Below are positions 2,070 through 64,000 of a stretch of 64,000 bases of DNA, piece by piece. The notes below the pieces were generated by a model. That model was not told the origin of the DNA. It saw nothing but the letters and a program-made list of their open reading frames with translations, and ran no database searches. Every line of letters begins with the position of its first letter. Within the stretch, counting starts at the first letter, position 1. The DNA comes from a virus (Duplodnaviria; Heunggongvirae; Uroviricota; Caudoviricetes), in the IMG/VR virus record IMGVR_UViG_2681813233_000007; one strand, written 5' to 3'. The position numbers were made by a program, and so were the translations under genes.

Positions 2070-4017
2070 CAATCCTTTACGAATTAATATTCAGTCTACT
2101 TTTGCTGATACGATCCCCGGCTATATGCCAAGTCGCTGGTCTTCAGAAGAATTAAGCGAAGATGACCTGATTTTTGAGGCGGCGACCTTAGAAGATATTG
2201 AGCTTGCCTATATGGGCAATGAAATTCTGGTTGTGTCTGACGAAGCTATGTTTGAGTCCATAACTACAACCAGAATTCGGTTAGCTCAAACAATGCGAGC
2301 TTTCGTCCGTGCGCTGAATCGTGGCCTGAATGGTACGAATATTATGGCAGGGACTGATGAAGCTGGGACCGATGAAAATGGACGTAATTGTATTGGTGGT
2401 GCGATTATCGGTCGTGTACGTCGGGTAGCTAATATCCCTGTTTTGACCGCGCAGATACCGCTTACTGACGGGCAGAGTACAAGCATAATTTTCCACTCTC
2501 CAACAGCTGACGGGGCAAAAATAAAGAGTAACGACGAGCTTGTTGCATTTCAGTTTTTACTTAATAAGCGTAACGTAACTCACGTTGTCGCCCCGATTGG
2601 TGGGAGAGATGTTTCTTTAAGCCAGGTATGCCAGGCGCTATCTAATTTGATTGAGCGTAACAGCGAAAAATTTAAGAAAGCAAAAGAGCGCCAGGACAAA
2701 ATGAAGGCAGATATTGAGAGTTATCTCAATGAAGCAGATAAACTGGCAGAAGAACGGTCAATAATGATTGATCAGGTGGACGTTGCGCAACGTGGGCTGA
2801 CTGAAAAGCGTGCTGCTCTTACGGAGATGCAAAAAAAACTTGATGCCCAGAAAGCTATCAATGAGGAATTACAAGCAAAACGCGATAAATTGTTGTCTGC
2901 TAAAGGTGAAAAAACGAAAGAACGAGCGTTTAGTGACCAGCTGCGACATGTAAAACATAATCTTGCCATTGACGGAAAAACAGTGCTTGATAATGGCGCT
3001 GAAGTTAATTATGTCACGTCCGGCAGTGACAATTTCGTTACGATAGTAGCACCTGAAGGTAAATTCAGTATTGATGCCAGTGCTGTCAAAGGAGGCAGTT
3101 TGGCAGATGCTGCAACCAAATTACTTAAAGCCTACCGAGAGCATAACGCAGATAAATATAAAGTTGATGTGTTACCAGGCCAGTTGGAAGACTCCGAACC
3201 ACCACAGACAGACCCCGAAACGAACCCAGTATTACAACCAGAGAGCCAAGATGTAGGTGAATACCACTATGCACTTCAATCTCGCCCGGCTGGTGTTGGT
3301 GCTGTTCCGGATGGAAATAAAGCCGTGCTTGATCGTCCTGACCAGGCTGATCAGTATTACGAATATGCTCGTCACGGTATCATTACGTATGACCGTAAAC
3401 TGACAGATGAAGAAGTCAGCCAGTACGAGTTGCTTTATCTTCCTGATGAAGATGAGCTGAAAGATTTTGCAGGCCAATTGGTTGCGTCCAGCATGTCGAA
3501 ACATATTGATGGCTATGTGGACCTGTTTGGCAGTGACCTGAAAACATTCAAGGCGCAAGTGAAAATTCTTTTCCGCAAAGCGTTTCCAAACGTGGCGTAT
3601 CCACTTAGTGATGGGGAGAACCTTTTCATTATGGACGTGTATAACGCCCTTCAAAATCATTCAAGCGAAGTAAAAACAGAGCATGTGGTTGAGCCAGAAT
3701 CACAACCACAACCACAACCACAACCACAACCACAACCACAACCAGCACCAGAACAGGAGTCGGAGCCAGAAGAAGCGGGTGAATCAGCAAGTGAAGCTGA
3801 TCAGGAAGCAGATAAAGCGCTGGAGTACCTGAAATCCGTGCCGGAGCAGTTTACATCCCGCGATCTGACGGTCATCAGTGCTGAACTTGATCATGTGCAG
3901 GAAGCAGCAAACGCTCTAATCAGTGCAGGTCGATACGACGAGAACGAAGCCACTGTGGGTGCAGCAGTTGACTACCTGATCAATATTCTGGCTGAAATTC
4001 AGCAGGGAGGTGTTTAA
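2059..4017 (+). CDS. Large head-associated protein with (PQ)n linker, DarA-like by size and context
   Basis: ~650 aa ORF with GGAGGA RBS; size and position match the P1 darA operon; no catalytic motif recognised. Confidence 0.45.
   Translation, partial: SMINNPLRINIQSTFADTIPGYMPSRWSSEELSEDDLIFEAATLEDIELAYMGNEILVVSDEAMFESITTTRIRLAQTMRAFVRALNRGLNGTNIMAGTDEAGTDENGRNCIGGAIIGRVRRVANIPVLTAQIPLTDGQSTSIIFHSPTADGAKIKSNDELVAFQFLLNKRNVTHVVAPIGGRDVSLSQVCQALSNLIERNSEKFKKAKERQDKMKADIESYLNEADKLAEERSIMIDQVDVAQRGLTEKRAALTEMQKKLDAQKAINEELQAKRDKLLSAKGEKTKERAFSDQLRHVKHNLAIDGKTVLDNGAEVNYVTSGSDNFVTIVAPEGKFSIDASAVKGGSLADAATKLLKAYREHNADKYKVDVLPGQLEDSEPPQTDPETNPVLQPESQDVGEYHYALQSRPAGVGAVPDGNKAVLDRPDQADQYYEYARHGIITYDRKLTDEEVSQYELLYLPDEDELKDFAGQLVASSMSKHIDGYVDLFGSDLKTFKAQVKILFRKAFPNVAYPLSDGENLFIMDVYNALQNHSSEVKTEHVVEPESQPQPQPQPQPQPQPAPEQESEPEEAGESASEADQEADKALEYLKSVPEQFTSRDLTVISAELDHVQEAANALISAGRYDENEATVGAAVDYLINILAEIQQGGV
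3701..3742 (+). repeat. (CACAAC)x7 hexanucleotide tandem repeat encoding a PQPQ linker
   Basis: Seven perfect CACAAC units inside the DarA-like ORF. Confidence 0.9.
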
Positions 4018-5929: not shown

Positions 5930-7612
5930 ATGGCAACGAAAGACAAAAACAAAGGCTTTCTGTCAGCATTGAAGAAAGCCTTCAACGGTGGTGATGTTAC
6001 GCCCGCCGATCCGGTCGTTTTTACGAGCGGACATAGTGTCGTTGCTCGTTCCGGCCTGTCTGCTTTACGTCCAGGCATCCTGGGGAGCAATAGCGATGGC
6101 ATGACGAGTGAGGCAGATTCAATTTCTTTATCCGCTGAACTGCCCGGCGAGCGCCTGCAAAAGTACAACATCCTGGAAACGATGGCTAAAAGCCCGACTA
6201 TCTCGACGGCTTTAAACATTCACATTGCACATGCGCTTGCGCCTTCAAAAAAAACCGGACAGGCATTCATCCTTTCGCCAAAGGATGGTTCCGATGCCGA
6301 GGCAGTAAGTAGATGTGAAGAGTTAACCGCTGATTTGGGGGCGATGATTAATGACGGACTTCCTTCATGGGCCATGATCATGGCGATCTTTGGGGTGTCT
6401 TATGTCCGACCTTATGCTGAACAGGGCAGGGGGATAACAGGCATTGAGTCCAGTTATTACACTCTGCCACATTTCGTCCAGGAATTTTATCGCGGTAGCC
6501 AGCTGGTTGGATTCAGTGGTGATTACATCCTGGATACGCATAGTTTGCGCAGAGTAATAACCGAACCGTGGAATCTGGTTTCCATGAAAAATCCCTATTG
6601 GACGCCACAGCATAAAGTTATTCCGGTTAGCTACGGCACAAAAGGGTACTCACTGTTAAGTGAGCAGGCTGATAAGCCGTTAATGGAGACGCAGAATTAC
6701 GGAACTTCATTCCTGGAATACAGCTATGAACCTTACCTTAATTTATGTGCTTCGCTCGCCGCGCTGAAATCAACGCGAAATAATGCAGCCAAAATTGACC
6801 GCCTGATTGCTCTTACGACGAACACACTGGACCCGGTTAATGCGGCGAACTATACGCGTGGCGTCAGCCAGGCATTGAAGCGTCATAGTGACCTGGTGGC
6901 GCAAAGGTCGATTAATGCCAACGCTATTCCGACTGTGCTTAACCATCTGATACCTGTTATGGGAGACGGGAAGAACGGCATCACCATTGATACGCAATCC
7001 ATACCCGCAGATATCAGTGGTATCGAAGACGTTATGTTTCACCTCCGGCAGCTTGCTGCAAGCCTCGGCATTGACGCAACAATGCTTGGCTGGGCTGATC
7101 AGATGAGCGGAGGGCTTGGAGAAGGCGGCTGGCAGCAAACTGCTATCCAGGCTGCATTGCGTGCGAACTGGATCAGACAGGCCGCCCAGCGAACTATTTA
7201 TCGGCTTCTGGACATTCACCTCGCTTATAAATACGGCAAGGTTTACACCGAAACAAACCGCCCTTATGACGTGCAATTCAACTCAATGAACACTGCTATC
7301 CAGGAAGAGGAAAACCGGGAACTGGATGCACGCGCCAACTTTGTTGCTGTCATCTCCCAAATTATGGACCAGATCCAGAACAACCCGAAACTGGCTGGTA
7401 GTGACGCGTTTATGCGTTATCTGTTCACTGAGCAGTTGCACATCGACGATGACACTCTCAACACCATGATCAAAGAGTTTAAGGCGAATGAATCAGAGCA
7501 AAACAACGAGCATGGTATGTACGAATCCGCGCCGTTGTCGTCCGGTGACGATCCGGAAAACTGGACGCCAGAACAGTTAATAAACTTTGCAAAATTTGTG
7601 ATGAGCAATTAA
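5930..7612 (+). CDS. Putative portal protein (Prt-like)
   Basis: 560 aa, portal-sized, immediately followed by a protease-sized ORF; assignment by size and synteny. Confidence 0.4.
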   Translation: MATKDKNKGFLSALKKAFNGGDVTPADPVVFTSGHSVVARSGLSALRPGILGSNSDGMTSEADSISLSAELPGERLQKYNILETMAKSPTISTALNIHIAHALAPSKKTGQAFILSPKDGSDAEAVSRCEELTADLGAMINDGLPSWAMIMAIFGVSYVRPYAEQGRGITGIESSYYTLPHFVQEFYRGSQLVGFSGDYILDTHSLRRVITEPWNLVSMKNPYWTPQHKVIPVSYGTKGYSLLSEQADKPLMETQNYGTSFLEYSYEPYLNLCASLAALKSTRNNAAKIDRLIALTTNTLDPVNAANYTRGVSQALKRHSDLVAQRSINANAIPTVLNHLIPVMGDGKNGITIDTQSIPADISGIEDVMFHLRQLAASLGIDATMLGWADQMSGGLGEGGWQQTAIQAALRANWIRQAAQRTIYRLLDIHLAYKYGKVYTETNRPYDVQFNSMNTAIQEEENRELDARANFVAVISQIMDQIQNNPKLAGSDAFMRYLFTEQLHIDDDTLNTMIKEFKANESEQNNEHGMYESAPLSSGDDPENWTPEQLINFAKFVMSN

Positions 7613-7625
7613 CCGGAGGGAAATA

Positions 7626-8624
7626 ATGCAATCACTGAATACTGTTACGGATCGCTTCTCCCTGGTAGAGAAAATCCGCAAACACACACCGCAGAACAAC
7701 CGAAATTATGTCATTCAGTCGGTACGAGACACATTCAACTCGCCAGAAACAAAAGAGCGTATCGCGCTGGGTGAGATGTATGGTTATTACGGTCATGGTC
7801 GCCGGGCGATGCACTATAACAAAACGAAAAGCCTGAACTTGCCGGAAGTCTCTGTTGTGATGGTAGATGGGAAGCCTGTTGTATTGGAGAACGTGCCGTC
7901 AAACAGGACTATCGACATTTCGATTGACGACAACGGCATTGTTACGCATACGCAGGAAATACTGGATACAGACACCGGGCGTATTGTTCAGGGCATGATT
8001 AATTCTGGTGCTGGTGGTTGGTCGTGGGCTACATCTGGTCCAGATTCATCGGTATCCCTGGTAAAGTCTTTCCACGGCTTTGATTACGTAACTGTGCCTA
8101 ACTATATCAGCCTCGACAAGAAAAGCCTGATGCTTGAATCAGCAGAAGAGCGCGATGCGGCTATTCATGCAGCACTTATCGAACAAGGTTTTACCGATAA
8201 CGCTGCTACGGATCTGGTTCACCACTTTTCAGCAATGAAAAATCAGCAAGCCATGCTCGAATCTGCACATCGTGAAGCCCTGGAATCAGAATTGATGCTC
8301 CTTGAAGTGGAAAACATACAGCTTCGAGATAAGCTGCGCGCTCAAACAGCGATGATGGAAAGCCAGGGGGAAAATGCAAAGCAATGCCGCCGGATTTTGC
8401 GTGACGCTATCCAGGAAATGCCTGTTTTTATCAGCGCAGAACAGCGCCGGGCGCTCTGCCGTATGCAGTCTGAAGATGATGCCCGCATAGTGGCTGCGAT
8501 GCTTGAATCTCTTGGGGCAAATGCTACTTATGGCTTACCGGTATCAGGCAAGAAAGAACCAGAGTTATCACCGAAGGAGAACAAAAACACCACCCCGTTA
8601 CTCTTCGTTTCTAGAAGGGGGTAA
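7626..8624 (+). CDS. Putative prohead protease/scaffold (Pro-like)
   Basis: 332 aa directly after the portal-like ORF; coiled-coil C-terminal half. Confidence 0.35.
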   Translation: MQSLNTVTDRFSLVEKIRKHTPQNNRNYVIQSVRDTFNSPETKERIALGEMYGYYGHGRRAMHYNKTKSLNLPEVSVVMVDGKPVVLENVPSNRTIDISIDDNGIVTHTQEILDTDTGRIVQGMINSGAGGWSWATSGPDSSVSLVKSFHGFDYVTVPNYISLDKKSLMLESAEERDAAIHAALIEQGFTDNAATDLVHHFSAMKNQQAMLESAHREALESELMLLEVENIQLRDKLRAQTAMMESQGENAKQCRRILRDAIQEMPVFISAEQRRALCRMQSEDDARIVAAMLESLGANATYGLPVSGKKEPELSPKENKNTTPLLFVSRRG

Positions 8625-8634
8625 TCGCCTTGTT

Positions 8635-8652
8635 AAGTTAAATTTCTAACAT
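8635..8652 (-). promoter_or_regulatory. Operator-like motif ATGTTAGAAATTTAACTT
   Basis: Member of the dispersed TGTTAGAAA motif family; upstream of the 8825 ORF. Confidence 0.45.
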
Positions 8653-8737
8653 AGTGTATTTATATACACTGTTGATCCTGGTGGATGGGATCGAGTAGGA
8701 TCGCGGTCACTGCTCCGGTAGCGACTGCCAAAAAAGC

Positions 8738-8764
8738 AAAAGCCGCTGAGAAGCGGCTTTTTGG
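8738..8764 (+). terminator. Rho-independent terminator
   Basis: GC hairpin AGCCGC-tgagaa-GCGGCT followed by a T-run after the 7626-8624 ORF. Confidence 0.6.
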
Positions 8765-8824
8765 GTGTATAAATCCACTGCCATAGATTTATACGGTAGA
8801 TAGATTTTTTCACGGAACTATCTG

Positions 8825-9787
8825 GTGAGTATTTTAAATTCAGTTTCAGTAACTTTCAACACTTCTGAGTATAAAAACAACACTGAATACCACAAAAAAA
8901 TCAAAGGTCATCAGTTGAGTTTTTTTGCTCGTCATAGCGGTCTTCTTTCCCCTTCACATAGCGCCATTATTGCCGAGTTCGCCAACCTGGCAGGGTCTAC
9001 CGATGAATACATGATCCGTCGCTCATATGCTGATATGTCCGAGATTACAGGACGCAGCATTTCTACTGTGCGCCGGGCATTTGCTGAAGCGACGAAGTGC
9101 GGAATGCTTGTTAAGCAACATCAGGTAGCGAATAACAATGCCCAGGTGTGTAACGTATATCGGTTTACGACACAATTTCTCCACTTCATTCATGTAGCAA
9201 TGGAGATAGGGGGTAAGCAGGGCATCAAATTTGCCAACGCCACAAAGCTGGTTAAGCAATTGATTTCAAAGGTACGTTATTTTTTTGAAACTGGGACCCC
9301 CCTGTTCAAATTGAACAAGTCCCCCCATGTTCAATTTGAACAGCCAATAGAAAATAAGAGTCACTCTATAGCCAAAAGAAGAGAAAGATCATGCGCGGTT
9401 CAGCCAAAGGCTTCACCAGCAGATAGTTCTCAAGCGGATAATGGGGGACTGGATAAAAAAACAGTAATCAGGGAAGAACATACCAACCACTGCCTGGCGG
9501 CGGCAAAAGCGAGAGCTGCAAAGCGTCGTTCAGACGAGGGGCACGCAAAACGGCAGGCTCTGTATCGTACCGCTGAAAAGCTGGCAAAAAAATTTGCATG
9601 GATACGTAGTGCCGCTACCGCAGTGAATAAGCCTAAACAATCCAGTGCCCTGGATTTCTCAATGGATTATTCTGGCTCCCAGGGGTGTGCAACCATTGGT
9701 GAAGCCTTTGACCTGATGAAACAGCGTGGCTATCTGTCTGAATTTGACCGTGAGGATTGGTCAATCCCTGCGGGATTTAGGGGATGA
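8825..9787 (+). CDS. HTH DNA-binding protein, possible KilA/RepL-region homolog (lytic replicon candidate)
   Basis: 320 aa; HTH-like segment MSEITGRSISTVRRAFAEA; internal inverted palindrome pair at 9304-9343; GTG start uncertain. Confidence 0.35.
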   Translation: MSILNSVSVTFNTSEYKNNTEYHKKIKGHQLSFFARHSGLLSPSHSAIIAEFANLAGSTDEYMIRRSYADMSEITGRSISTVRRAFAEATKCGMLVKQHQVANNNAQVCNVYRFTTQFLHFIHVAMEIGGKQGIKFANATKLVKQLISKVRYFFETGTPLFKLNKSPHVQFEQPIENKSHSIAKRRERSCAVQPKASPADSSQADNGGLDKKTVIREEHTNHCLAAAKARAAKRRSDEGHAKRQALYRTAEKLAKKFAWIRSAATAVNKPKQSSALDFSMDYSGSQGCATIGEAFDLMKQRGYLSEFDREDWSIPAGFRG

Positions 9788-9840
9788 CCTGTGTGTCTAC
9801 AAAACATCCCAATGATCGGAAAATGCTCGCTCGATAATTT

Positions 9841-9858: not shown

Positions 9859-10200
9859 GCTGTTTCTAAATCGGAATGTATGATCTGCATCATCGTCTGA
9901 AGTCATCCATTGCTGAAATTTTTAGTTGATCTTCCATGTTTTCAGGCTTATATTCATGCCGTCGTAGCAAATTCTGCGACCGGGTTTGACAGCCTGAATA
10001 CTTACGCGGACAACCGCACATTTCCGATATTGCGGTATTTTTGTGTCCGTAAAACCACGTTACGCCCGAATTATGGTGGGGCGTGATGGGGAGGCTTCGG
10101 CCTGCTGGTTTCGTAAGTGCCAGTCTGTCAACCCTGTCACGTCCTGCCACCTGTTTGACAGCGGGTCGCAGGTTGTTTATCAACTTACGAGGCCGTAACT

Positions 10201-10425
10201 ATGGTTAATGCCAATCCTTGCTCACGTCCAGAATTCATCTGGCGTTTCCACTCCCTGCAAAAACACTGCGATCACTTCGCAATTGCCGCAACCGAAAAAG
10301 AAGCCCGTTCTCTGATCCCTGATCAGTATGGTGTTCTTACTGGTCGTTTCTCTACTTCCCCACAACCAAACACTAATCCCTGGTATCGCAATATTACCAA
10401 TCCCGGAATTGCGGAGGCACACTGA
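10201..10425 (+). CDS. Icd-like small protein (copy 1)
   Basis: 74 aa, motif EFIWRF(H/Y)S.QKH shared with the paralog at 49445; directly upstream of the Ant-like gene as in P1 immI. Confidence 0.5.
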   Translation: MVNANPCSRPEFIWRFHSLQKHCDHFAIAATEKEARSLIPDQYGVLTGRFSTSPQPNTNPWYRNITNPGIAEAH

Positions 10426-11132
10426 TGGAAATCTGCATTCTTGAAAAGCCATCAATGACCAGCATTGAGATCGCGGAGCTGGTGGGAAGTCGCCCGGATA
10501 ACGTTAAACGCACTATTGAACGCTTGAGTAAATCAGGTGTTATTCCACTTCCTCCAATGGAGGTTTCCGAAAATATCAATAACTTAGGATTTAAAGTTAA
10601 AAATTCACACTACGTCTTCGAAGGCGAGCAAGGCAAGCGTGACAGTATCATTGTCGTTGCGCAGCTTTCTCCCGAATTCACCGCCCGGCTGGTGGACCGC
10701 TGGCGCGAACTGGAAGAACAAGTACGCCAGCCGTTGACCGAAATAGAGATGATCGCCGCAATGGCTGCAAATGCAGTTCAGCAGCAAAAGCGGCTTCATG
10801 TTGTTGAGTCAAAGGTTAGCCAGGTGGTAGAAACCGTCGAGCAAATCAAGAAGGGCAACATGCCGGAAGGCTACATTGGCTACCGCCAGCTGGCGGCGAA
10901 ATGTGGCCTGACTGAAGCCAAATGCCGAAACCTGGTCAACGCTTACCGGATTCCCACCGATACACATGAGTTTTTAACTCCAGAGGGGGTATTGTCGCGT
11001 CGTTCCATCGTGGCCTTATCTCCCTTCATGAATGCTTTTAACCGGATGATGTCGGAGGCTGAACACCGAGGAAAACGCTGGTATCACCCCAAAATGGGGC
11101 AATTCCAGGTGATCGGTTGGGGAGGTGAGTGA
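10425..11132 (+). CDS. Antirepressor-like protein (Ant/KilA-type), copy 1
   Basis: 235 aa; N-terminal MTSIEIAELVG..DNVKRTIE shared with the 313-aa paralog at 49660. Confidence 0.55.
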   Translation: MEICILEKPSMTSIEIAELVGSRPDNVKRTIERLSKSGVIPLPPMEVSENINNLGFKVKNSHYVFEGEQGKRDSIIVVAQLSPEFTARLVDRWRELEEQVRQPLTEIEMIAAMAANAVQQQKRLHVVESKVSQVVETVEQIKKGNMPEGYIGYRQLAAKCGLTEAKCRNLVNAYRIPTDTHEFLTPEGVLSRRSIVALSPFMNAFNRMMSEAEHRGKRWYHPKMGQFQVIGWGGE

Positions 11133-23265: not shown

Positions 23266-23342
23266 GATGGTGTAGCTCAGTAGGATAGAGCAGCAGCCTT
23301 CTAAGCTGTCGGTCGGTGGTTCGAATCCATCCACCATCGCCA
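23266..23342 (+). tRNA. tRNA-Arg (anticodon UCU)
   Basis: Cloverleaf by hand: acceptor GATGGTG/CACCATC, D-arm GCTC/GAGC, anticodon loop CTTCTAA, T-loop TTCGAAT, encoded CCA. Confidence 0.75.
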
Positions 23343-23344
23343 AT

Positions 23345-23417
23345 GCCGGTTTAGCTCAGTTGGTAGAGCGCCTGCCTTGTAAGCAGGATGTCAGCGGTTC
23401 GAGTCCGTTAACCGGCA
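23345..23417 (+). tRNA. tRNA-Thr (anticodon UGU)
   Basis: Acceptor GCCGGTT/AACCGGC, D-loop AGTTGGTA, anticodon loop CTTGTAA, T-loop TTCGAGT. Confidence 0.8.
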
Positions 23418-23428
23418 CCGACACAACA

Positions 23429-23502
23429 GGTAAGGGTATTTTGCGACGTCGGAGATCGCCGTGCTTGGCAGAGGGTTCGAATCCCTACGAAGTACCCTTA
23501 CC
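23429..23502 (+). ncRNA. Atypical tRNA-like element (possible degenerate tRNA)
   Basis: Has GGTTCGAATCC T-loop and paired termini GGTAAGGG/CCCTTACC, but D and anticodon arms do not fold canonically by hand. Confidence 0.3.
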
Positions 23503-23649
23503 GTTGTGATGAAGTGCAGCTCTTTGAAGCAACCAGAAGATAAGCATCTGGCTTCACAACATAAACCGCATGAACGACCAATAAACGGTAGTCCGTATGG
23601 AGAACACCCCGTTGAGGAAGAGGCCTGGCCGGAACCGTAACCGGCACTA

Positions 23650-23739
23650 CAACGTTGAGAACACTGGCGTAACGGGGTCATATCCCAATCTATGAATAAA
23701 TGTTGCGTTGCAGCGTGACAACCAGTGTTCTCAACATTG
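23650..23739. repeat. 18-bp inverted repeat (one mismatch) with 54-nt loop
   Basis: CAACGTTGAGAACACTGG at 23650-23667 pairs with CCAGTGTTCTCAACATTG at 23722-23739. Confidence 0.7.
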
Positions 23740-23874
23740 TGGTGAATGCGCAGGCTGATGCGCGAAAGACATTGCAGCTATTGCGGAAAAGAGCTGTTCG
23801 GCGGGGCAATTAAACGCCCGTGAGAGTCTGAAATAACCGCAAGCCGGAGATCAGCACCGGTCGCCACAATCAGC

Positions 23875-23961
23875 GGAGAGTAGGGGGCATGGTGCTCAAG
23901 CGGTCTTGAAAACCGTCCCATTGCGCAAGCGATGATGGTTCGATTCCATTACTCTCCGCCA
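23875..23961 (+). tRNA. Long-variable-arm tRNA-like gene, Ser-like (anticodon UGA), atypical D-arm
   Basis: Acceptor GGAGAGT/ACTCTCC, anticodon arm GCGGT-CTTGAAA-ACCGT, T-arm GATGG-TTCGATT-CCATT, encoded CCA; D-stem weak. Confidence 0.45.
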
Positions 23962-24211
23962 TCGCAACGTTAAGAGTATTTGGCTAATTAAGCGAATGCC
24001 GGAAGCAGAACCGGATCATCAAATGCGTACAGGCGTCATCGCCGCCCAGCCAGCCAAGTGCTCTTACCATTGCGGTGAATGCGGCTAAGCGCACGCGGAA
24101 CAGTTAAAACAATCCTCCTTAGTGGTTAAGTCAAACATCCCGGCGTTAATTGTTAACTGGTTAACGTCACCTGGAGGCACCAGGCACCGCAATCTAATAA
24201 AGTTTCAAGCA

Positions 24212-24445
24212 ATGGGGTTTTTGTTGTCAGACTTCAGATATAGATGGTTGTGGAAGGAGAGCCTGTACATAGTGCAGTTATTTCTTCCGCTATTTGTCTG
24301 CTTTGTCATGCTTCCTGAGCTGAAATACGCAATTTCAGACACTTTAAGCACTATCGTTACTTTTGTGTTTTATCTTTACTTTGATTACTTATTGAGCACT
24401 AAAATCAATGAATTATCCGCGGAAATGCAAGGTGGCTGTAAGTGA
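24212..24445 (+). CDS. Small hydrophobic membrane protein (hypothetical)
   Basis: 78 aa from ATG at 24212, in an AT-rich patch; highly hydrophobic. Confidence 0.3.
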   Translation: MGFLLSDFRYRWLWKESLYIVQLFLPLFVCFVMLPELKYAISDTLSTIVTFVFYLYFDYLLSTKINELSAEMQGGCK

Positions 24446-24573
24446 TGGATTTTTGGGCGTTTGCCGATAAGAACCCTGGTTGGACATTTTTATTTTTGCT
24501 GGTGGTTGCATATGGGGTAGAGCAAGCGGCTAAAGCCTTACGCGGTTCTGGCAAAAAGCGTAAGCGGAATTAA
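24445..24573 (+). CDS. 42-aa peptide with a TM segment and basic C-terminus (hypothetical)
   Basis: ATG overlaps the upstream stop (ATGA); MDFWAF...GWTFLFLLVVAYGV...KKRKRN; below the ORF-track size cutoff. Confidence 0.3.
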   Translation: MDFWAFADKNPGWTFLFLLVVAYGVEQAAKALRGSGKKRKRN

Positions 24574-24582
24574 CAGTAATCT

Positions 24583-24658
24583 GGCCCTTTAGCTCAGTGG
24601 TTAGAGCAGGCGACTCATAATCGCACGGTCACCGGTTCAAATCCGGTAGGGGCCACCA
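24583..24658 (+). tRNA. tRNA-Ile2 type (anticodon CAU, lysidine-type AUA reader) or tRNA-Met
   Basis: Near-identical to the E. coli ileX-type sequence as I recall it; anticodon loop CTCATAA, encoded CCA. Confidence 0.8.
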
Positions 24659-33334: not shown

Positions 33335-34036
33335 ATGAATTACATGACAACGAAAGAGCTTTTTAAGTTCCTTCCCAAATACAAAGCTCACAAAAACGTT
33401 AGTGCATCGAAAATCAAAAATGTTGTTATTTTCGGAGTAACTGCTTCCCCACTTTGGGGCTGCATCGAACTCGTTGAACCAAAAGGGGCAACAGTTTGTG
33501 TTGACGCAATTTTTTTACAAAAACACCGACCAAAAACTGGCGGGTATCTGATCGTTTATGAAAACGGTTATCTGTTCTATGCCCCGGAGAAACCATTTGA
33601 GCAATGCTATGGCCTGGTTAACGACGCCTCCGAAAATGGGGTATCGCTCAGCATTGAAGGTCACAATGGGGTGACATTCATTACAGCCAGGGACGTAACT
33701 ATTTCTGCTGGCGGTATCGCTACTCTACAAGAAGAAATCGACCTTGAAGCAGCCGACTTTTCTGACGCGCTGATGTGGCTGAAGGATGGCAAGAAAGTTG
33801 CTCGACGCGGGTGGAACGGCGAAAACCAATTCTGCTGGCTGGTTCCTGACAAACAGGGTGCTTCAAGACTAACCCCTATAAAACATGCCGCAAACGGAGA
33901 GCTTGAAATCAATTTCGACTCTCCTCTTGCTCCTTATGGTGCGCATTTCGTTTTGAAAAATGCACAAGGTGTAGTTGTTCCATGGATGCCTTCTGTAGGT
34001 GACCTGCTGGCATGTGACTGGTTTGTAGTGGAGTGA
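33335..34036 (+). CDS. Two-domain protein with C-terminal DUF2829 (Tad2-like) domain
   Basis: C-terminal ~90 aa ALMWLKDGKKVARRGWNG...VPWMPSVGDLLACDWFVVE fits the DUF2829 pattern as I recall it; N-terminal ~140 aa unknown. Confidence 0.5.
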   Translation: MNYMTTKELFKFLPKYKAHKNVSASKIKNVVIFGVTASPLWGCIELVEPKGATVCVDAIFLQKHRPKTGGYLIVYENGYLFYAPEKPFEQCYGLVNDASENGVSLSIEGHNGVTFITARDVTISAGGIATLQEEIDLEAADFSDALMWLKDGKKVARRGWNGENQFCWLVPDKQGASRLTPIKHAANGELEINFDSPLAPYGAHFVLKNAQGVVVPWMPSVGDLLACDWFVVE

Positions 34037-34042
34037 TTTAAC

Positions 34043-34849
34043 GTGGAAAATACTAAAGCAATTCAATACCGCTTGCGTAATGGCCTGCTGGTGGCTGTTA
34101 ACGCCGACATGTCACTGCCGTTTGACACGATTGAACGCACCATAATGACGTATCTCGGCTTTAATGAAGAACTGAATGAAGAGCATGGCGTAGCTATATG
34201 GAGTGATGCAGACAGCGGCGTTCGTCGTTACATCACCGCCAGGGGCAAAGACTACTCTCTGGAAGAACTGTTTGCCCTTGCGCAGTCTTTCGAATGTGTA
34301 GCATTAGACCTGTTTAATGATCCTGCTATAGCGCAACGACTTATACGCGAGCTTGGGCTATCCGTTACACCAATTATCTTTAAAAATGGCAGCCTGACTG
34401 GCACATGGCGCGTAGAACGCATATCAAACTACCTTCCATATAACCGACAGTTAAATGGAGTAATCTCCGGCGTTAATCAGCCCGTAGCATGTGAAAATGT
34501 AAACCTGGTTGTCGCTGTTTTGGCAACCGCATGTCGTGTTATCGGTTTGGCTAAACAGGCATTTATTCATTTCCCAAATGGTGCAGAAGGTAGCGCAGAG
34601 ATTATCGCGTGTGATTTCGAATTTACCTGGATGCTACGCGAATATCTGGACCAAACAGTATTCCGTGCCGAAGAACTGGATATGTATATCACGTCAACGA
34701 TTCCAGACGATGTGCGAGCTGAAGCAATCGCTACAGCCAGGGCGAAATGCCGTGCGGCGATTGCAGAACAGGCCAAAGAAGAACAGTCCGATGAAGTCGC
34801 GGCAGATGTGGAGGCAGAGGTAGCGGAGGATGCTGATGCTGACGCCTAA
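34043..34849 (+). CDS. Hypothetical protein with acidic C-terminal tail
   Basis: 268 aa; C-terminus EEQSDEVAADVEAEVAEDADADA. Confidence 0.4.
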   Translation: MENTKAIQYRLRNGLLVAVNADMSLPFDTIERTIMTYLGFNEELNEEHGVAIWSDADSGVRRYITARGKDYSLEELFALAQSFECVALDLFNDPAIAQRLIRELGLSVTPIIFKNGSLTGTWRVERISNYLPYNRQLNGVISGVNQPVACENVNLVVAVLATACRVIGLAKQAFIHFPNGAEGSAEIIACDFEFTWMLREYLDQTVFRAEELDMYITSTIPDDVRAEAIATARAKCRAAIAEQAKEEQSDEVAADVEAEVAEDADADA

Positions 34850-35936
34850 AAACATCACCGAATTACCAGAGTGGAGAGAGCTGGTAAGCAAATATAGCCA
34901 TGACTGGGCATTAGCAGCAGAAGAGTTGATGGGTGTTAAGTTAACCCACCAGCAAAAGCTAATTGTTGAGGCGATTCAACAAAAAGGTTCAGCAGTCAGC
35001 GTCACCACTCCTGAAGGGATAGGCCAAAAGACGGTTATCGCTATAATTAGTATTCTTTATACAATCCTGATGCCTGAGTCTAAAACGGTTATTGTTTCCC
35101 CAAAGTTCTATAATTGTCGCAGGCAAGTTATCCAATACATAAGTACGTATTGGGATAGAGTCAGTAACAGAATCCCATTGCTGGGAGAATATTTTAAAGT
35201 CGATGGAAACGGCATCAATCATCGTTACCGGGAATATTGGGGCTGCGAAATTAAGCCATATCACCGAAATTATGAGGAAGGTTTCGGTGGATATTATGCT
35301 GAACATCTTTTAATCATTGTTACGGAGGCGGCTCTTGCTGGCGATCGGCTATTCAGCATGTTAAGAGCATCGTTAGTAAGTGACGATTCACGTATACTTT
35401 TAATGTCCGCTCCTTCAGAGGAGGAGCATGGACACTTTTACGATTCCCATCATGGTCGTGCTAAATCAGAAGAAAATCCATGTGGTATTTATACAGCCAT
35501 CAAGCTGAACGCAGAAGATACCCCCATTATTTCTCAAGGTTATCTTGATAACATTGCAGAAATATATGGTGGTAAAAACAGCGATTACTACCGTCGTATG
35601 ATTCTTGGTGAGTTTCCTGGTATTAGGGAGGCTGTTCTTGAATCAGATATGCCGAAGACAATGCGCTTTTCGATGCCTGATGGTAGTGAATGGATAATGC
35701 CATTACGAGTGATAGCCCGGCATCATGCACAGCACCACGCCAAAAAACATGGCGTTACAACATTGGAGTGGTTGAAATCGCACACCATTCCACTCTTCAC
35801 TGCAGATCACAATGCTATCGTTGAGTGGGCAAAAACAATTCCGTGGGAGAATGTTGCTGAATACGCCCACATGCTAAAACCGCCGAAAGACAGGCAAGAA
35901 ATTAGCTGGCTGACAGCAGAAAAAATCATTGAGTGA
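34830..35936 (+). CDS. Terminase large-subunit ATPase-domain paralog, truncated, degenerate Walker motifs
   Basis: Collinear with the PacB-like N-terminal ~360 aa (GHFYDSHHGRAK vs GYFYDSHHSQAK) but Walker A is GIGQKT and Walker B is LLIIVTEAA; no C-terminal nuclease domain. Confidence 0.6.
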   Translation: MLMLTPKNITELPEWRELVSKYSHDWALAAEELMGVKLTHQQKLIVEAIQQKGSAVSVTTPEGIGQKTVIAIISILYTILMPESKTVIVSPKFYNCRRQVIQYISTYWDRVSNRIPLLGEYFKVDGNGINHRYREYWGCEIKPYHRNYEEGFGGYYAEHLLIIVTEAALAGDRLFSMLRASLVSDDSRILLMSAPSEEEHGHFYDSHHGRAKSEENPCGIYTAIKLNAEDTPIISQGYLDNIAEIYGGKNSDYYRRMILGEFPGIREAVLESDMPKTMRFSMPDGSEWIMPLRVIARHHAQHHAKKHGVTTLEWLKSHTIPLFTADHNAIVEWAKTIPWENVAEYAHMLKPPKDRQEISWLTAEKIIE

Positions 35937-38664: not shown

Positions 38665-38971
38665 AATTACTCCGTGTTAATTTTACCTTTATCGCGAACA
38701 CCTTTACCGGTTTATCGCCGAAGTGCGGGTGTGTGATTATCTTGATTTCATAGCCGTCATACGGAACATCAATTCTGCGGCTGGAATCGTCGCGCTTCGG
38801 ATATCCCTTTGTGATAATCAGGCGGTCATACTTACGGTTAACGAGGCGCTTATTCCAGTAGTCATTACACAGGCGATACTCTTCCGTTTTCTCCCCGCGA
38901 ATCATGGCATCGAAGTATTCACCTTTAACGGCAAGTTGCAGGTTAGCCATTACCTCACCTCCAGTCTCCAT
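38651..38971 (-). CDS. ASCH/PUA-like small protein (hypothetical)
   Basis: 106 aa; GEYFDAMIRGEKTEEYR resembles an ASCH-type N-terminus. Confidence 0.35.
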   Translation of the reverse strand: METGGEVMANLQLAVKGEYFDAMIRGEKTEEYRLCNDYWNKRLVNRKYDRLIITKGYPKRDDSSRRIDVPYDGYEIKIITHPHFGDKPVKVFAIKVKLTRSNYVAR

Positions 38972-39210
38972 ACCGCCTGACCAATCCGGCTGGCATGGGT
39001 ATCTTTGGATACTGTTCCGTCTTTAGCCAGCTCCATAAGAATTTTGCGCAAATCTGCCGAACGCCATTCTTCATCAGGAAATTCCTTCTCCATTGCCAAC
39101 CGCAGATTCCAGGTTGCCATCCTGAATGGATATTCCCCGCCGAGAGCTTTATCTTGCAGGGCAGCCCGGGAACGCATCACCTGCAAAACCTTCTCTTTTA
39201 CATCCATCAT
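38950..39210 (-). CDS. Hypothetical protein
   Basis: 86 aa ORF. Confidence 0.35.
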   Translation of the reverse strand: MMDVKEKVLQVMRSRAALQDKALGGEYPFRMATWNLRLAMEKEFPDEEWRSADLRKILMELAKDGTVSKDTHASRIGQAVWRLEVR

Positions 39211-39836
39211 TCCGCCTCCTGCGGCGGTTCTGGTAGCGGCATCCAGTGAGTTACTTTCGATGCCGGTTCTTCCCCATCGTCAGTAACTGCCCACCATTTG
39301 TTTCTCGACCAATCGTAATACCCTTCGAAGGTATTGCACTCAGTCCAGCCGTAAGACTTACCCCAACACCAAACATACTGTTTATCGTTCGGCATTCGCT
39401 CACTACAGCTTATCCAACTATCCGGAATTACCGGAGAGTTGCCATTTACATCGAAGTTTGGTTCTGCGTCCTGAACTAGGAGGATGTAACCATTCTTGGC
39501 TGTATCAAGTTCTAACGCCTCGGTTACGGTACCGAAATAGCGATTACCTAAATCCGCATCACAAGTGCTTACATCAATGGAAACCTCCATGCCTTCGATT
39601 AATTCTGGCAAGTTGTAAGTTTGGCTTACAGGCTCTGCTTCCAGTGATGCCAGTGCAATTCGTGCCAGCTCACGCACAACTTCAGGGGGCGCGTAACGGT
39701 CATTCAGGTCATCCCACAGGCGTAGCATGTTATCGCTACCAGGGTGAACATCCTCGTTAGTTCCGGCAAGCGCACTAATAACCTCATCGGCTGCTTCAAT
39801 AATTTTCTGTGCCTGTTCTCTGGTAATAGTGGTCAT
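39207..39836 (-). CDS. Hypothetical protein with C-terminal DUF551-like Trp-rich segment
   Basis: 209 aa; C-terminus ...WCWGKSYGW...KVTHWMPLPEPP. Confidence 0.4.
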   Translation of the reverse strand: MTTITREQAQKIIEAADEVISALAGTNEDVHPGSDNMLRLWDDLNDRYAPPEVVRELARIALASLEAEPVSQTYNLPELIEGMEVSIDVSTCDADLGNRYFGTVTEALELDTAKNGYILLVQDAEPNFDVNGNSPVIPDSWISCSERMPNDKQYVWCWGKSYGWTECNTFEGYYDWSRNKWWAVTDDGEEPASKVTHWMPLPEPPQEAE

Positions 39837-49444: not shown

Positions 49445-49660
49445 ATGGCTACTATCCCCACCCCAACTCATTCTGAATTTATCTGGCGTTTCTATTCCTG
49501 CCAAAAACACCTCTATATCTGCGTCATGGCTGCTACCGAAGCAGAAGCGCGCTCATGCATTCCCGAAGAACCCTGCATTTTTGCTGCTCGCTTCACTCTT
49601 GATGCGATGGAGATCCTCAATTACTGGAATCTGCCGATGAACTGCGTGGAGGTGCACTGA
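49445..49660 (+). CDS. Icd-like small protein (copy 2)
   Basis: 71 aa; EFIWRFYSCQKH motif; paralog of 10201..10425. Confidence 0.5.
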   Translation: MATIPTPTHSEFIWRFYSCQKHLYICVMAATEAEARSCIPEEPCIFAARFTLDAMEILNYWNLPMNCVEVH

Positions 49661-50601
49661 TGAATCTGTCCATCTCTCAAAAAGCGACAATGACCAGTAT
49701 TGAGATCGCGGAACTGGTAGGTAAGCGTCATGATAATGTGAAGCGTACCATTGAAGTATTAACTAAAGGTGGTGTCATTCAATTTCCTCAAATTGAGGAA
49801 ATTGAAAATAAACAATCAGTTGGCCCTCGTCGATTTTCCAAGGCTTACATCTTTGAAGGCGAACAAGGCAAGCGTGACAGTATCATTGTCGTCGCACAGC
49901 TTTCTCCCGAATTTACCGCCCGGCTGGTGGACCGCTGGCGCGAACTGGAGAATGCCCGGGTACAGTTAAAATCAAAAGCCGAAATCCTAGCTGAAATGGC
50001 GCAAATGCATCTTGAGCATGAACGCCGGATCAACGCCGTTAATGCCCAGGTAGCCGAAGTATCGGCACAAGTGTCCAAAGTCGCTGAAACCGTCGAGCAA
50101 ATCAAGAAAGGCAATATGCCGGAAGGCTACATTGGCTACCGCCAGCTGGCGGCGAAATGCGGCCTGACTGAAGCCAAATGTCGCAACCTTGTCAACGCTT
50201 ACCGGATTCCCACCGATACACATGAGTTTTTGACCCCCGATGGCTTGCTTGCGCGACGCTCCATTGTGGCCCTGGCCCCCTTCCGGAAAGCCTTTAAGCA
50301 GGTGATGTCGGAGGCAGAACCACGCAATAAACGCTGGTATCATCCAAAGATGGGGATGTTTCAGGCAATCCACCATCCTGTGCCTGAAAGTCCAAAGGCA
50401 AACCTGTCGTTGCATACCGCCAGAGAGAGGATTAAAACAGGGTATGCAATCGTATGCCGTCGAGCATCTTGGCCTGAAGGTGTATGGGTATGGCCCGAAG
50501 GTGGATCACGAAAGCACTGGCGCACTATCCGGGATGGGAAAATCCATGCGATTGATTTAGCTCCAGAGGATGTTGTTGCTACGGACTGGATTGTTAGTTA
50601 A
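49660..50601 (+). CDS. Antirepressor-like protein (Ant/KilA-type), copy 2
   Basis: 313 aa; N-terminal and central blocks shared with copy 1, including near-identical nucleotide stretches. Confidence 0.55.
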   Translation: MNLSISQKATMTSIEIAELVGKRHDNVKRTIEVLTKGGVIQFPQIEEIENKQSVGPRRFSKAYIFEGEQGKRDSIIVVAQLSPEFTARLVDRWRELENARVQLKSKAEILAEMAQMHLEHERRINAVNAQVAEVSAQVSKVAETVEQIKKGNMPEGYIGYRQLAAKCGLTEAKCRNLVNAYRIPTDTHEFLTPDGLLARRSIVALAPFRKAFKQVMSEAEPRNKRWYHPKMGMFQAIHHPVPESPKANLSLHTARERIKTGYAIVCRRASWPEGVWVWPEGGSRKHWRTIRDGKIHAIDLAPEDVVATDWIVS

Positions 50602-60310: not shown

Positions 60311-61216
60311 ATGAGATCAGTCGCTTTCAAAAATATCTTCATCTATCGTCTTTCACGCGAAGTTAGCTGGGATACTGCAGAAGTAAATGCAGCCCTTAGC
60401 AAGTTTGTGTTTACCCCATGCGGTTCTCAGGATATGGCTAAAGCTGGTTGGACCCCCGTTCTTGGCGACAACCTCACCCATGAATACCAGGGTTTTCTTC
60501 TGATACAGCATAAACGAGAGGAAAAAATCCTACCCTCTCAAGTGCTCAAAGAAGAGTTACAGAAAAAAATCCTGACACTTGAAGAAGAGCAAGACAGAAA
60601 GCTGAAGAAGACTGAAAAAGATTCGCTGAAGGATGAAGTGCTTCACTCTCTTCTTCCTCGTGCTTTCACGAGAAAATCAGTCGCTAAAATCCTGATAGAC
60701 CGAAGCAATCATCTGGTTTTTGTCGAGGCCAGCAGTGCTAAAAAAGCAGAGGATCAGCTGGCTTTGTTACGGAAATCGCTTGGCAGCTTGCCCGTTGTCC
60801 CCTTCTCTCCGAAAGACCCATTAGAACTGACCATCACTGGCTGGATTAAAAATGGCTTCCCGAACGGTTTCCGTGCCGGTGAGGAAGCGACCTTAAAAGC
60901 ATTGCTTGATGATGGCGGCGCGGTCCGCTGCAAAAAAGTGGACCTGCTATCCGACGAGATCATGAGTCATATAGAAGCTGGTAAGGTTGCAACCACAGTT
61001 GCGGTTAACTGGCAAGACCGTGCATTTTTCAGACTGAATGACGATATGAGTATCAAGGCTTTGTCGTTCAGCGACGAATTGTACGACCAGAACGACGATA
61101 TTGATCGAGAGGATGTTGCGCAACGATTTGACGCTGACTTTATCCTATTTACTGCTGAATTATCAGCGATGTTCACCTCGCTAGTGGAGGCCGTTGGTGG
61201 TGAAGCAGAACGTTAA
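60311..61216 (+). CDS. rdgC: RdgC-like recombination-associated protein
   Basis: 301 aa, collinear with E. coli RdgC as I recall it (FKN...[59 protein letters not shown]). Confidence 0.8.
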
Positions 61217-63488
61217 CCTTCGATATGGTTCAGTTTGCAGTGGAATTGAAGCCGCGAGCATTGCCTGGGAACCGTTGGGTATGCGTCCGGCGTGGTTTGC
61301 TGAAATTGAGCCTTTTCCATCTGCCGTTCTTGCGCACCGCTGGCCTCATGTCGCCAACCTTGGCGATATGACAAAACTTGCCAAAAAAGTCCTGGCTGGG
61401 GAAATCGAATCCCCTGATGTGCTCGTCGGGGGAACACCTTGTCAGGCATTCAGTATCGCGGGATTACGTGGTGGGCTTGATGATGAGCGTGGCGCGCTAA
61501 CTTTAAAGTATGTGGAGCTTGCAAATGCAATTGACGACAAACGGGCTGAGTCATTTCTCAAACCAGCCGTTATCGTCTGGGAAAATGTCCCAGGAGTCTT
61601 GTCATCGGCAGATAACGCCTTCGGATGTTTCCTTGCCGGATTGGCTGGAGAAGATGCGCCATTTGAACCAGGTGATCGACCTGAATCAGGAAAAAGTAAC
61701 ACGTTCTGGCGGTGGGATGGCAAAACCGGTTGCCATGCTCCAAAGTGGCCGCAGTGTGGTTGTATTTATGGACCGCAGCGAAAAGTGGCCTGGAGAATCC
61801 TTGATGCCCAATACTTCGGAGTGGCACAACGACGCCGACGCGTGTTTGTTGTCGCAAGTGCTCGAACAGACCTCGATCCCGCAACGGTACTTTTTGAGTT
61901 CGAAGGCGTGCGCCGGAATATTGCGCCGAGCCGAAAAAAGAAGGAAATCGCTTCCGCCATTATTGCAAATGGCGCTGCAATCAGTGGCGAAAGCCTAAAT
62001 CCATGCCTACACGCTGACATGCCACCCGGTATGAAATCGACGAAAGCCGTAAACGCTTTCAGGATGGCAGCATTTGGGGAATATATTGACGATGAAACCG
62101 CATCGACAGTAAAGGCAAGAGATTTTAAAGATGCCACTGACCTTGCCGTTTTTAGCAGCACAGGAGCAGGTTTTTGGTCAGAAGGGCATGGTACATTGCG
62201 GGCACGTGAGCAAGAAAGCCATGAGCATCTTGTTACATTGGCTTTTCCTGAGCGTATGAGCGGTACACAACATGCTGCAACTAAGAATACTTCACCATCT
62301 CTAATGGCTAAAAATCCAACAGCTGTTTGCTATGAAGTAAGAAACGCAGAAGTAGCTGTCCGCCGTCTTACCCCTGTCGAATGTGAAAGGCTGCAAGGTT
62401 TTCCTGAGGGGCATACGTTGATCCCGACGGAAAAGCGTAAAAAAGTTTCTTCAGATGAACTGGCATACCTTCGCAATCACTATCCAGATTTAAGCGAAGA
62501 AGAGGCCGCGATGCTTGCAGCTGACGGACCGCGTTACAAAGCGATCGGCAACAGCATGGCAGTTCCTGTTATGCAATGGATAGGGTGTCGCATTCTTGCG
62601 ACCGTAGCGGATAAACAGCAAAAAACAATAAATACCATTACCTACACAAGAAAACTCCGGACTCCGGATGAATATGAACGCCCAATATTCAAATGGGTAG
62701 GCGGTAAATTCTCAGAGTTGCCTACAGTGCTTGAGCATCTACCACACGGCAAGCGGTTAATAGAACCATTCGTTGGTGGCGGTTCCGTATTTACGAATGC
62801 AGGATTTCGCCACAACCTGCTTAATGATATTAACGGTGACCTGATTAACTTCTATCAGACATTGCAGCGAGAGGGACATTCGCTCGTCACGCTGGCATAT
62901 AGTTTTTTCAAAAATTACAACAACGCTGACGCTTACCTCGAAGTGCGTGAGGCATTTAACAGAGGAAAGTATGACCAACTACATCATGCTGCTGCCTTTT
63001 TGTACCTTAATCGGCACTGTTTTAATGGCGTAACGCGGTACAACCAAAATGGCGAGTTCAACGTAGGGTATGGCAAATACAAAGCGCCCTACTTCCCACA
63101 TGCAGAGATGGAGGCATTTTTGGCTGATGACGTACTCAAAAACACTTCCTTTGTATCAGGTGACTTTGCTAGCGTCATTGAGGCGGCTGGTGAAGACGAT
63201 GTGATTTTTTGTGATCCGCCGTATGAACCGCTTCCGGATACAGAGGGATTTACCAGCTATTCAGGAAATAGCTTCCGTTTCGACGAACAGAAACGGCTTG
63301 TATCACTGTTGGTGGATGCCCACCAGCGCGGCGCTAAGGTAGTGATAACAAATAGTGGTGCTCCAAACATCCGTGAACTATATGAAGGAAACGGGTTTAA
63401 AGTACATCATATGGCAGCCAGACGGTCGGTTTCCTGCAAGGCGTCAACACGTGTAGTTGCTAACGATATAATTGCAATAATGAAGTAA
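61194..63488 (+). CDS. dmt: Bifunctional DNA methyltransferase: N-terminal C5-cytosine MTase fused to C-terminal Dam-like N6-adenine MTase
   Basis: [12 protein letters not shown] (PCQ) and ENVPG in the N-half; KWVGGK and DPPY in the C-half; start overlaps the rdgC stop. Confidence 0.85.
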
Positions 63489-63512
63489 AAAACGCCGCAG
63501 TAGCGGCGTTTA
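63489..63512. terminator. Bidirectional rho-independent terminator
   Basis: AAAA-CGCCGC-agta-GCGGCG-TTT between dmt and the convergent glnS-like gene. Confidence 0.7.
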
Positions 63513-63536
63513 CTTTTTCATGTGGCGAAATACCTA

Positions 63537-64000
63537 TTAACCTAACTTCGCCCAGGTATCACGCAGCCCAACGGTGCGGTTAAATACCGGTTTTTCCGCC
63601 GTAGAATGGCGGCTGTCGAGGCAGAAATAACCTTCACGCTCAAACTGGAATGCTTTACCCGCTACCGCTTCTTTCAGCGACGGTTCAGCAAAGCCCTGTT
63701 TGATCACCAGCGATTCCGGGTTAATCACCGACAGGAAATCATCCGCAGCACCTGGGTTCGGCACGTTGAACAGACGATCGTACAGGCGGATTTCAACCGG
63801 CAGCGCATGTGCCGCGCTCACCCAGTGAATAACGCCTTTCACTTTACGACCATCTGCCGGATCTTTGCTTAAGGTGTCGGCGTCATAAGTACAGAAGATG
63901 GTGGTGATATTGCCTTCGGCATCTTTCTCCACGCGTTCAGCCTTAATGACGTAAGCATTACGCAGACGCACTTCTTTACCCAGCACCAGACGTTTGTACT
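63537..64000 (-). CDS. glnS: Glutaminyl-tRNA synthetase C-terminal (anticodon-binding) region, truncated by the window edge
   Basis: 149 aa called plus open frame to the window end; matches the E. coli GlnRS C-terminus as I recall it (...[13 protein letters not shown]..). Confidence 0.6.

Follow-up and report, generated by a model that had tools for sequence, protein, structure and literature searches.

Evidence that a glnS fragment at the end of a viral sequence belongs to a complete glutaminyl-tRNA synthetase gene carried by a D6-like plasmid prophage

Introduction

The window analysed here is a 64,000-nucleotide stretch of Caudoviricetes DNA (IMG/VR record IMGVR_UViG_2681813233_000007) that ends inside an open reading frame resembling the C-terminus of a glutaminyl-tRNA synthetase (GlnRS). 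The locus raises the question of whose gene this is. A sequence-only reading of the window had left three alternatives, namely: a glnS gene of the element's own; integration of the element into a host chromosome; and a pickup or assembly join. The first of these stands and the other two fall, as judged by the genes on either flank, the restriction of the adjacent backbone to plasmids, and the separate location of the chromosomal glnS locus.

That elements of this type carry glnS was already known, because the gene is annotated both in phage D6 (orf62, ‘glutaminyl-tRNA synthetase, similar to E. coli GlnS’) and in plasmids in RefSeq, and was described in 2019 as present in all D6-like genomes, with its function unknown (PMC6799933). 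What is added here is the resolution of the ambiguity at the window edge, the comparison with an empty site, the origin of the apparently shared terminator, the retention of a putatively Dam-sensitive promoter, and the case for a donor outside E. coli and for gene conversion that has recurred since the capture.

The end of the window

The features at the end of the window are listed below, with the evidence for each in brackets; an asterisk in a peptide marks the stop codon.

61194..63488, plus strand: dmt, a fused C5-cytosine and Dam-like N6-adenine DNA methyltransferase gene of the phage backbone (PF00145, PF02086, annotations)
63490..63511, no strand assigned: bidirectional intrinsic-terminator hairpin AAACGCCGC-AGTA-GCGGCGTTT (terminator scan, BLAST, downstream sequences of 19 chromosomal glnS genes)
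63512..63536, no strand assigned: 25-nt spacer from the glnS stop to the hairpin, without counterpart in E. coli chromosomes (alignments)
63537..63545, minus strand: element-specific glnS tail, Leu552-Gly553-stop (alignment, C-termini, megablast boundaries)
63537..64000, minus strand: 3′ end of glnS, glutamine--tRNA ligase (ORF, Pfam, match to the pE2863-2 glnS without differences)

The glnS fragment consists of 153 sense codons and a TAA stop (63537-63539); its frame is open through the window end, and its C-terminus reads ...RDTWAKLG*. Pfam finds PF20974 (E=1.5e-26) and PF03950 (E=1.1e-8) in it, both above their gathering thresholds, and these are the two class-I Glu/Gln anticodon-binding beta-barrel domains. 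The ORF and the two domains bear out the sequence-only reading, which had recognized the C-terminal anticodon-binding region of a GlnRS on the minus strand. The annotated glnS of plasmid pE2863-2 has a 3′ end identical in sequence to the fragment. Some 1.2 kb at the 5′ end of the gene falls outside the window and was read in relatives, where the full gene encodes 553 aa.

The dmt gene, which combines a D12 N6-adenine methylase domain with a C5-methylase domain, is convergent with glnS. The stop codons of the two genes are separated by 48 nt, in which the terminator scan finds a single hairpin with a 9-bp stem and a T-run on either strand (63490-63511); the earlier description of the two genes as converging on a shared terminator was therefore accurate. 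In the window, dmt is one fused ORF of 764 aa, and the phage D6 record splits the same region into orf64 and orf63. The idea that glnS adjoins a rare-codon tRNA set had to be dropped: the tRNA cluster (Arg-tct, Thr-tgt, Ser-tga and Met-cat, at 23266-24658) lies ~40 kb away and contains no tRNA-Gln. The published D6-like plasmid pYU39_89 was reported with Asn, Thr, Ser and Met tRNAs; the first tRNA of the window is Arg(tct), so that it differs or was called differently.

Identity of the replicon

The window is collinear with the circular plasmid pE2863-2 (92,925 bp) at ~99% identity over most of its length and at 95-97% in three short segments. Its last 601 nt are 96.8% identical to phage D6 and up to 100% identical to 112 plasmid records, the matching plasmids being mostly circular, non-mobilisable and ~90 kb in size, from E. 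coli, Salmonella and Shigella hosts. The end of glnS together with its flank is found at 95-100% identity in about 100 plasmids. Both marks of a D6-like plasmid prophage, namely a collinear genome and matching records that are circular extrachromosomal replicons, are present. The element had earlier been called P1-like; the relationship to P1 holds, with the refinement that this is a D6-type relative of P1 and not P1 itself.

Two further observations concern the body of the window. At 33845-35436 and 38949-39391, collinearity with pE2863-2 is broken or identity falls to 95-97%, and these segments look like variable accessory spots. The segments 10413-11099 and 49648-50355, which are Icd-like/antirepressor-type regions, each cross-match the other's counterpart in pE2863-2 at 77-87%; this suggests duplicated immunity modules, as in P1.

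We then considered what lies on the two sides of glnS. Upstream of the gene, the D6 annotation lists homologues of P1 genes 5, 6, 7 and 24 (tail/baseplate type), hrdC and dmt. Past it, the order in D6 and pE2863-2 is orf61, a ParA-like ATPase gene, StbB/StbA (ParM), homologues of P1 upfC/upfB, and the major capsid gene. Inspection of the flank past glnS, which had been proposed as a check, thus finds, in D6 and in about 100 D6-like plasmids, the orf61/ParA-like/StbAB partition genes rather than nagE or chiP.

In order to see where this backbone occurs, we used the 511 nt just past glnS as a probe against the full set of 5,426 complete E. coli genomes. It is present in 94 of the 5,426, on a plasmid in 94/94 and on a chromosome in none. 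Of the elements with this backbone, 75/94 (~80%) carry glnS and ~19/94 do not. A full-length chromosomal glnS match was found in 5425 of the 5426 genomes, at 5428 chromosomal places. Strain E2863, the host of pE2863-2, has an intact chromosomal glnS in the nagE-glnS-chiP context; the product matches the K-12 enzyme at every residue, and 48 nt separate this gene from the pE2863-2 copy. A host glnS locus with normal neighbours would have spoken for chromosomal DNA at the window end; in this carrier, that locus is separate from the element.

The gene body is 96-97% identical to the chromosomal glnS of E. coli, as would be expected if the window had entered the chromosome next to an integrated prophage, or if the junction between dmt and glnS were an assembly artefact. 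We give such an explanation next to no weight. The same junction is present in phage D6, a virion-derived sequence, and in circular plasmids from about 100 independent assemblies; phage-plasmid DNA lies on either flank of glnS; the adjacent backbone is never chromosomal; the chromosomal homology stops within the last three codons and ~65-88 nt 5′ of the ATG; and the chromosomal glnS of the carrier strain is elsewhere. An integrated-prophage or chromosome junction would have nagE/chiP flanks, and the actual flanks are dmt and orf61/ParA-like. Integration and an assembly join were rejected because the flanks are those of a phage-plasmid, the backbone is confined to plasmids, and the chromosomal glnS is separate and intact. 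Taken together, these results make it highly probable that we are dealing with a D6-like (P1-related) plasmid prophage that has a complete glnS of its own, carried as ~1.9 kb of chromosome-derived cargo between dmt and the orf61/ParA-like operon.

The full-length gene and its product

The full glnS of pE2863-2 and D6 is 1662 nt long. Its 553-aa product shows HIGH at residue 41 and VMSK at residue 268, the latter being the GlnRS form of the KMSKS motif. The Rossmann-fold catalytic domain PF00749 is found in the pE2863-2 gene with E=6e-130, and the full-length plasmid GlnRS contains all three Pfam domains. Whether the ORF is intact and has its catalytic motifs had been named as a check, and the gene read in pE2863-2 passes it. 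The protein can be aligned over its whole length with structures of E. coli GlnRS (1o0b, 1gtr and others), which identifies it as GlnRS and not GluRS. With respect to PDB 1o0b, it carries V97I, Q106K, I112V, S478N, D509E and V552L and lacks the last residue. All six substitutions are conservative, and amino-acid identity to the housekeeping enzyme is ~99%. A diverged, inhibitor-resistant second synthetase of the mupA or agnB2 type was considered and rejected on these grounds.

Of the 43 listed plasmids that cover the locus completely, 41 have an intact annotated glnS. The two exceptions are pF16EC0589-1, which has a 1-nt insertion, and pSa1423, which has a stop at codon 56 and 95 alignment gaps; since the annotation surrounding the latter is fragmentary, its disruption may be a sequencing error or real decay. 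Pairwise dN/dS is 0.01-0.04 for the D6-type copies among themselves and against chromosomes, compared to 0.007-0.009 for chromosome-chromosome pairs; the low plasmid values overstate selection on the plasmid copy, because part of the variation was imported from chromosomal alleles that had already been under selection.

The gene described here is that of phage D6 (orf62 in MF356679 / NC_050154) and of pYU39_89-type plasmids: it occupies the same position, converges with dmt, lies upstream of orf61 and the ParA-like gene, and encodes 553 aa ending in AKLG*. The D6 gene and that of our element are 98.1% identical in nucleotide sequence, and the differences are allelic only, the 3′ third of the D6 gene being a K-12-like allele and the window having the pE2863-2 allele. 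The chromosomal GlnRS of E. coli (glnS, b0680; PDB 1o0b, 1gtr, 1qtq) has the same domains, the HIGH and VMSK motifs, and the same core promoter including the −10 GATC. The plasmid copy differs from it in being one residue shorter with another tail, in having an ancestral hairpin instead of a REP sequence, in its sequence upstream of −65, and in its location, the chromosomal gene lying between nagE and chiP and the plasmid copy on a phage-plasmid. A further parallel is CysRS of Salmonella Typhimurium pBT1, likewise a full-length housekeeping synthetase duplicated on a large low-copy enteric plasmid. However, the pBT1 enzyme is diverged, less active, and essential with the chromosomal copy down-regulated, whereas the plasmid GlnRS is near-identical to that of the host and there is no sign of chromosomal loss.

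Complete glnS genes with the conserved terminator hairpin are also found on plasmids of Citrobacter cronae (NZ_CP060445) and Enterobacter ludwigii (NZ_CP116349, 133 kb). These are independent captures, with 86-87% nucleotide identity, other flanks, and 555-aa products ending in AKAGE* or TKSGE*. The C. cronae plasmid is conjugative (MOBP/MPF_I) and has full-length glnS and cysS side by side near HigB (locus 5985-9809); the E. ludwigii glnS (locus 5989-7656) adjoins dinQ and two integrases.

Anatomy of the insert

Three phage-plasmids without glnS (E. coli NZ_CP085065 and CP042620; E. marmotae NZ_CP099353) have dmt and a hairpin followed directly by orf61, with 113-138 bp between the two genes. 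Their dmt-orf61 adjacency identifies the glnS segment as an insert of ~1.9 kb. The hairpin after dmt in these relatives is a different one (AAAAGCCCC...GGGGCTTTT).

Within the insert, homology to the chromosomal glnS of E. coli (96-97%) runs from ~65-88 nt 5′ of the ATG to codon 551. Beyond that codon the C-termini diverge, the host chromosome encoding AKVGE* and the element AKLG*. The homologous region includes the promoter, which a promoter scan reads as sigma-70 TTGTCA-17-GATCAT with a GATC within the −10 hexamer; the GATC at −44 is also kept. In E. coli, both loss of dam and mutation of its Dam sites derepress the glnS promoter (Plumbridge & Soll 1987, as reported in PMC12369378); the same paper reports confirmation by RNA-seq, at +1.08 log2. 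By its identity with the host promoter, the plasmid glnS promoter is presumably native and Dam-sensitive, that is, Dam-repressed.

The other end of the insert points away from E. coli. We compared the sequences downstream of 19 chromosomal glnS genes and ran BLAST against enterobacterial glnS loci. The hairpin, in the form AAACGCCGC-loop-GCGGCGTTTTTT, lies 14-35 nt past the chromosomal glnS stop in Citrobacter, Salmonella, Enterobacter, Kluyvera, Atlantibacter, Cedecea and others, with near variants in the chromosomes of Klebsiella and Trabulsiella; in those of E. coli and E. ruysiae, a REP-like sequence replaces it. On this comparison, the hairpin that dmt and glnS appear to share is identified as the native enterobacterial glnS terminator. 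A terminator of foreign type, together with the retained promoter and the ORF, argues that the module was captured whole, from a donor other than E. coli.

The 5′ flank of the insert (pE2863-2 locus 9888-9960) and the 25-nt spacer had no match among 80 enterobacterial glnS loci. The flank contains, upstream of the glnS promoter, a minus-strand ORF of 14 codons (MKKLIIEITIESNF*; pE2863-2 locus 9905-9949), for which no homologue was found and which may be meaningless. Between the promoter and the orf61 stop there is a 13-nt inverted repeat, AAAGGTGCACCAA/TTGGTACACCTTT, with ACCA-N-GGT-like motifs (pE2863-2 locus 9989-10026); similar motifs occupy the short dmt-orf61 spacer of the relatives without glnS. 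The repeat may be a partition site or an operator of the orf60/orf61 ParA-like module.

Donor and gene conversion

Partitioned distances show that the parts of the gene have different histories. Over nt 1-600, five D6-type copies are 0.5-1.8% apart and 4.0-5.0% from E. coli chromosomal alleles; as yardsticks, E. coli chromosomal alleles are 1.5% apart in this part and E. ruysiae, at 4.3-4.5%, is about as far from them as the plasmid copies are. Over nt 601-1100, the plasmid copies fall inside E. coli's own diversity. Over nt 1101-1650, the ptetA and D6 copies are 0.4-0.7% from K-12, and the distances of the pE2863 copy are 4.0% to K-12 and 1.8% to another E. coli allele. In the pF16EC0589-1 gene, a block of chromosomal type spans about nt 250-700. 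There are 10 internal sites at which the five D6-type copies are alike and differ from both E. coli and E. ruysiae, and at 9 of these they have the state of most outgroup genera.

The presence of different E. coli alleles in the 3′ two-thirds of different plasmids indicates repeated gene conversion. The simplest reading of these alignments is a single old capture, probably from a basal Escherichia-like lineage outside E. coli, followed by recurrent conversion by the resident chromosomal glnS, which would have left the non-homologous ends of the module untouched. E. coli itself was rejected as the direct donor of the whole module, because a type foreign to it is seen in the terminator, in the tail codons and in the 5′ third.

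A D6-like plasmid of E. fergusonii (NZ_CP099330) has a glnS at the same site with a third tail, AKVEG*, encoding 554 aa and diverged by 5% (locus 1826-3490). It could represent either a conversion that reached the terminator hairpin or a separate capture.

Discussion

The module would have arrived on the element with its own promoter, its 5′ leader, the entire ORF and its native terminator hairpin. The plasmid GlnRS is predicted to charge host tRNA-Gln just as the host enzyme does, which is expected because the protein is nearly identical to E. coli GlnRS and has all the catalytic and anticodon-binding domains. Each lysogen would then hold a second, plasmid-borne GlnRS gene and a doubled glnS dosage, which would climb much further in lytic phage replication. 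Expression would be driven by the native, Dam-repressed promoter, and output could perhaps be modulated by GATC methylation, with a gene next door (dmt) that encodes a Dam-like domain. The gene may be retained because an extra or host-independent supply of GlnRS benefits the element or the lysogen. These proposals on expression, tRNA-Gln charging and benefit to element or host are drawn from sequence comparison.

A tRNA-Gln gene was found neither on the whole 92.9-kb element nor beside the other plasmid glnS genes. Nor did an unusual demand for glutamine emerge among the 30 large proteins of the element, which contain 4.0% Gln with 60% CAG codons; the average Gln content of E. coli is about 4.4%. 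Published suggestions for the D6-like glnS are that it is a fitness moron, or that it serves plasmid maintenance by analogy with the cysS of pBT1 (PMC6799933).

A serious rival to a selected role is that glnS is a neutral hitchhiker, captured once by illegitimate recombination, cheap to carry, continually repaired by conversion from the essential copy of the host and without a selected function on the element. The mosaic tracts prove that conversion is frequent, the protein is virtually that of the host, the element shows no Gln-related need, related plasmids without the gene exist, and the dN/dS values that involve plasmid copies (plasmid-chromosome and plasmid-plasmid) mostly exceed those between chromosomes. 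We nevertheless hold this explanation to be unlikely overall, since the unconverted 5′ third, although 4-5% away from E. coli, differs in protein by only three conservative substitutions and is nowhere disrupted; copies borne by Salmonella plasmids are intact too, although an identity of 84.5% to the chromosomal gene should make repair difficult there; promoter and terminator have been kept; and about four-fifths of the elements with this backbone carry the gene. If the plasmid enzyme instead became the main or only source of GlnRS, loss of the plasmid would lead to death or poor growth, and glnS would act as a retention device. There is precedent in the pBT1 CysRS, which is essential with chromosomal cysS down-regulated (PMC6785131), and the same idea was raised for glnS in PMC6799933; moreover, phd-doc, higBA and two partition loci already provide D6-like plasmids with several layers of retention, and the Citrobacter plasmid has glnS and cysS together near a HigB toxin. 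Such a takeover should show as a lost, disrupted or silenced chromosomal copy in carriers, but at the DNA level the chromosomal gene is full length in all but one of the complete E. coli genomes, and in the carrier E2863 it is an intact ORF in its normal context with a K-12-identical product. We therefore regard a takeover as improbable, more so than the hitchhiker.

Phages commonly carry tRNAs as counter-defence. By extension, extra GlnRS might buffer lysogens or infected cells against toxins or nucleases that hit tRNA-Gln or GlnRS. One such agent is CdiA-CT(EC869), a contact-dependent inhibition toxin of enterohaemorrhagic E. coli that cleaves acceptor stems including that of tRNA-Gln (PMC9071432), and it is in Shiga-toxin-producing E. 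coli clonal complexes that D6-like elements reach their highest numbers (bioRxiv 10.1101/2025.09.12.675607). However, this link is purely circumstantial and speculative; a tRNA once cleaved is beyond repair by a synthetase, tRNA-Gln is not among the tRNAs of the element, and the enzyme is not a diverged, resistant variant. Of the roles considered, we find this one the most far-fetched. It is somewhat easier to imagine, though still doubtful in our view, that D6-like phage-plasmids act, by means of ~1.7 kb of near-perfect homology to an essential chromosomal gene, as a two-way shuttle of glnS alleles between strains and species, and that the Dam-repressed promoter, lying beside a Dam-like methylase, couples GlnRS output to the state of methylation or replication; this ranks above the takeover and a little below the hitchhiker. 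The exchange observed so far runs in one direction, with chromosome-like tracts seen in plasmids only.

For the annotation of such sequences, the glnS fragment at the window edge is no sign of integration, chimerism or misassembly, and is unfit for calling a host-phage junction. Roughly 1-2% of complete E. coli genomes contain D6-like phage-plasmids, which also occur in Salmonella and Shigella; their glnS provides a natural example of a mobile element that carries a second copy of an essential translation gene. The mosaic alleles indicate that the plasmid duplicate recombines with the chromosomal gene, which matters for glnS-based typing and phylogeny and for our understanding of DNA exchange between phage-plasmids and their hosts.
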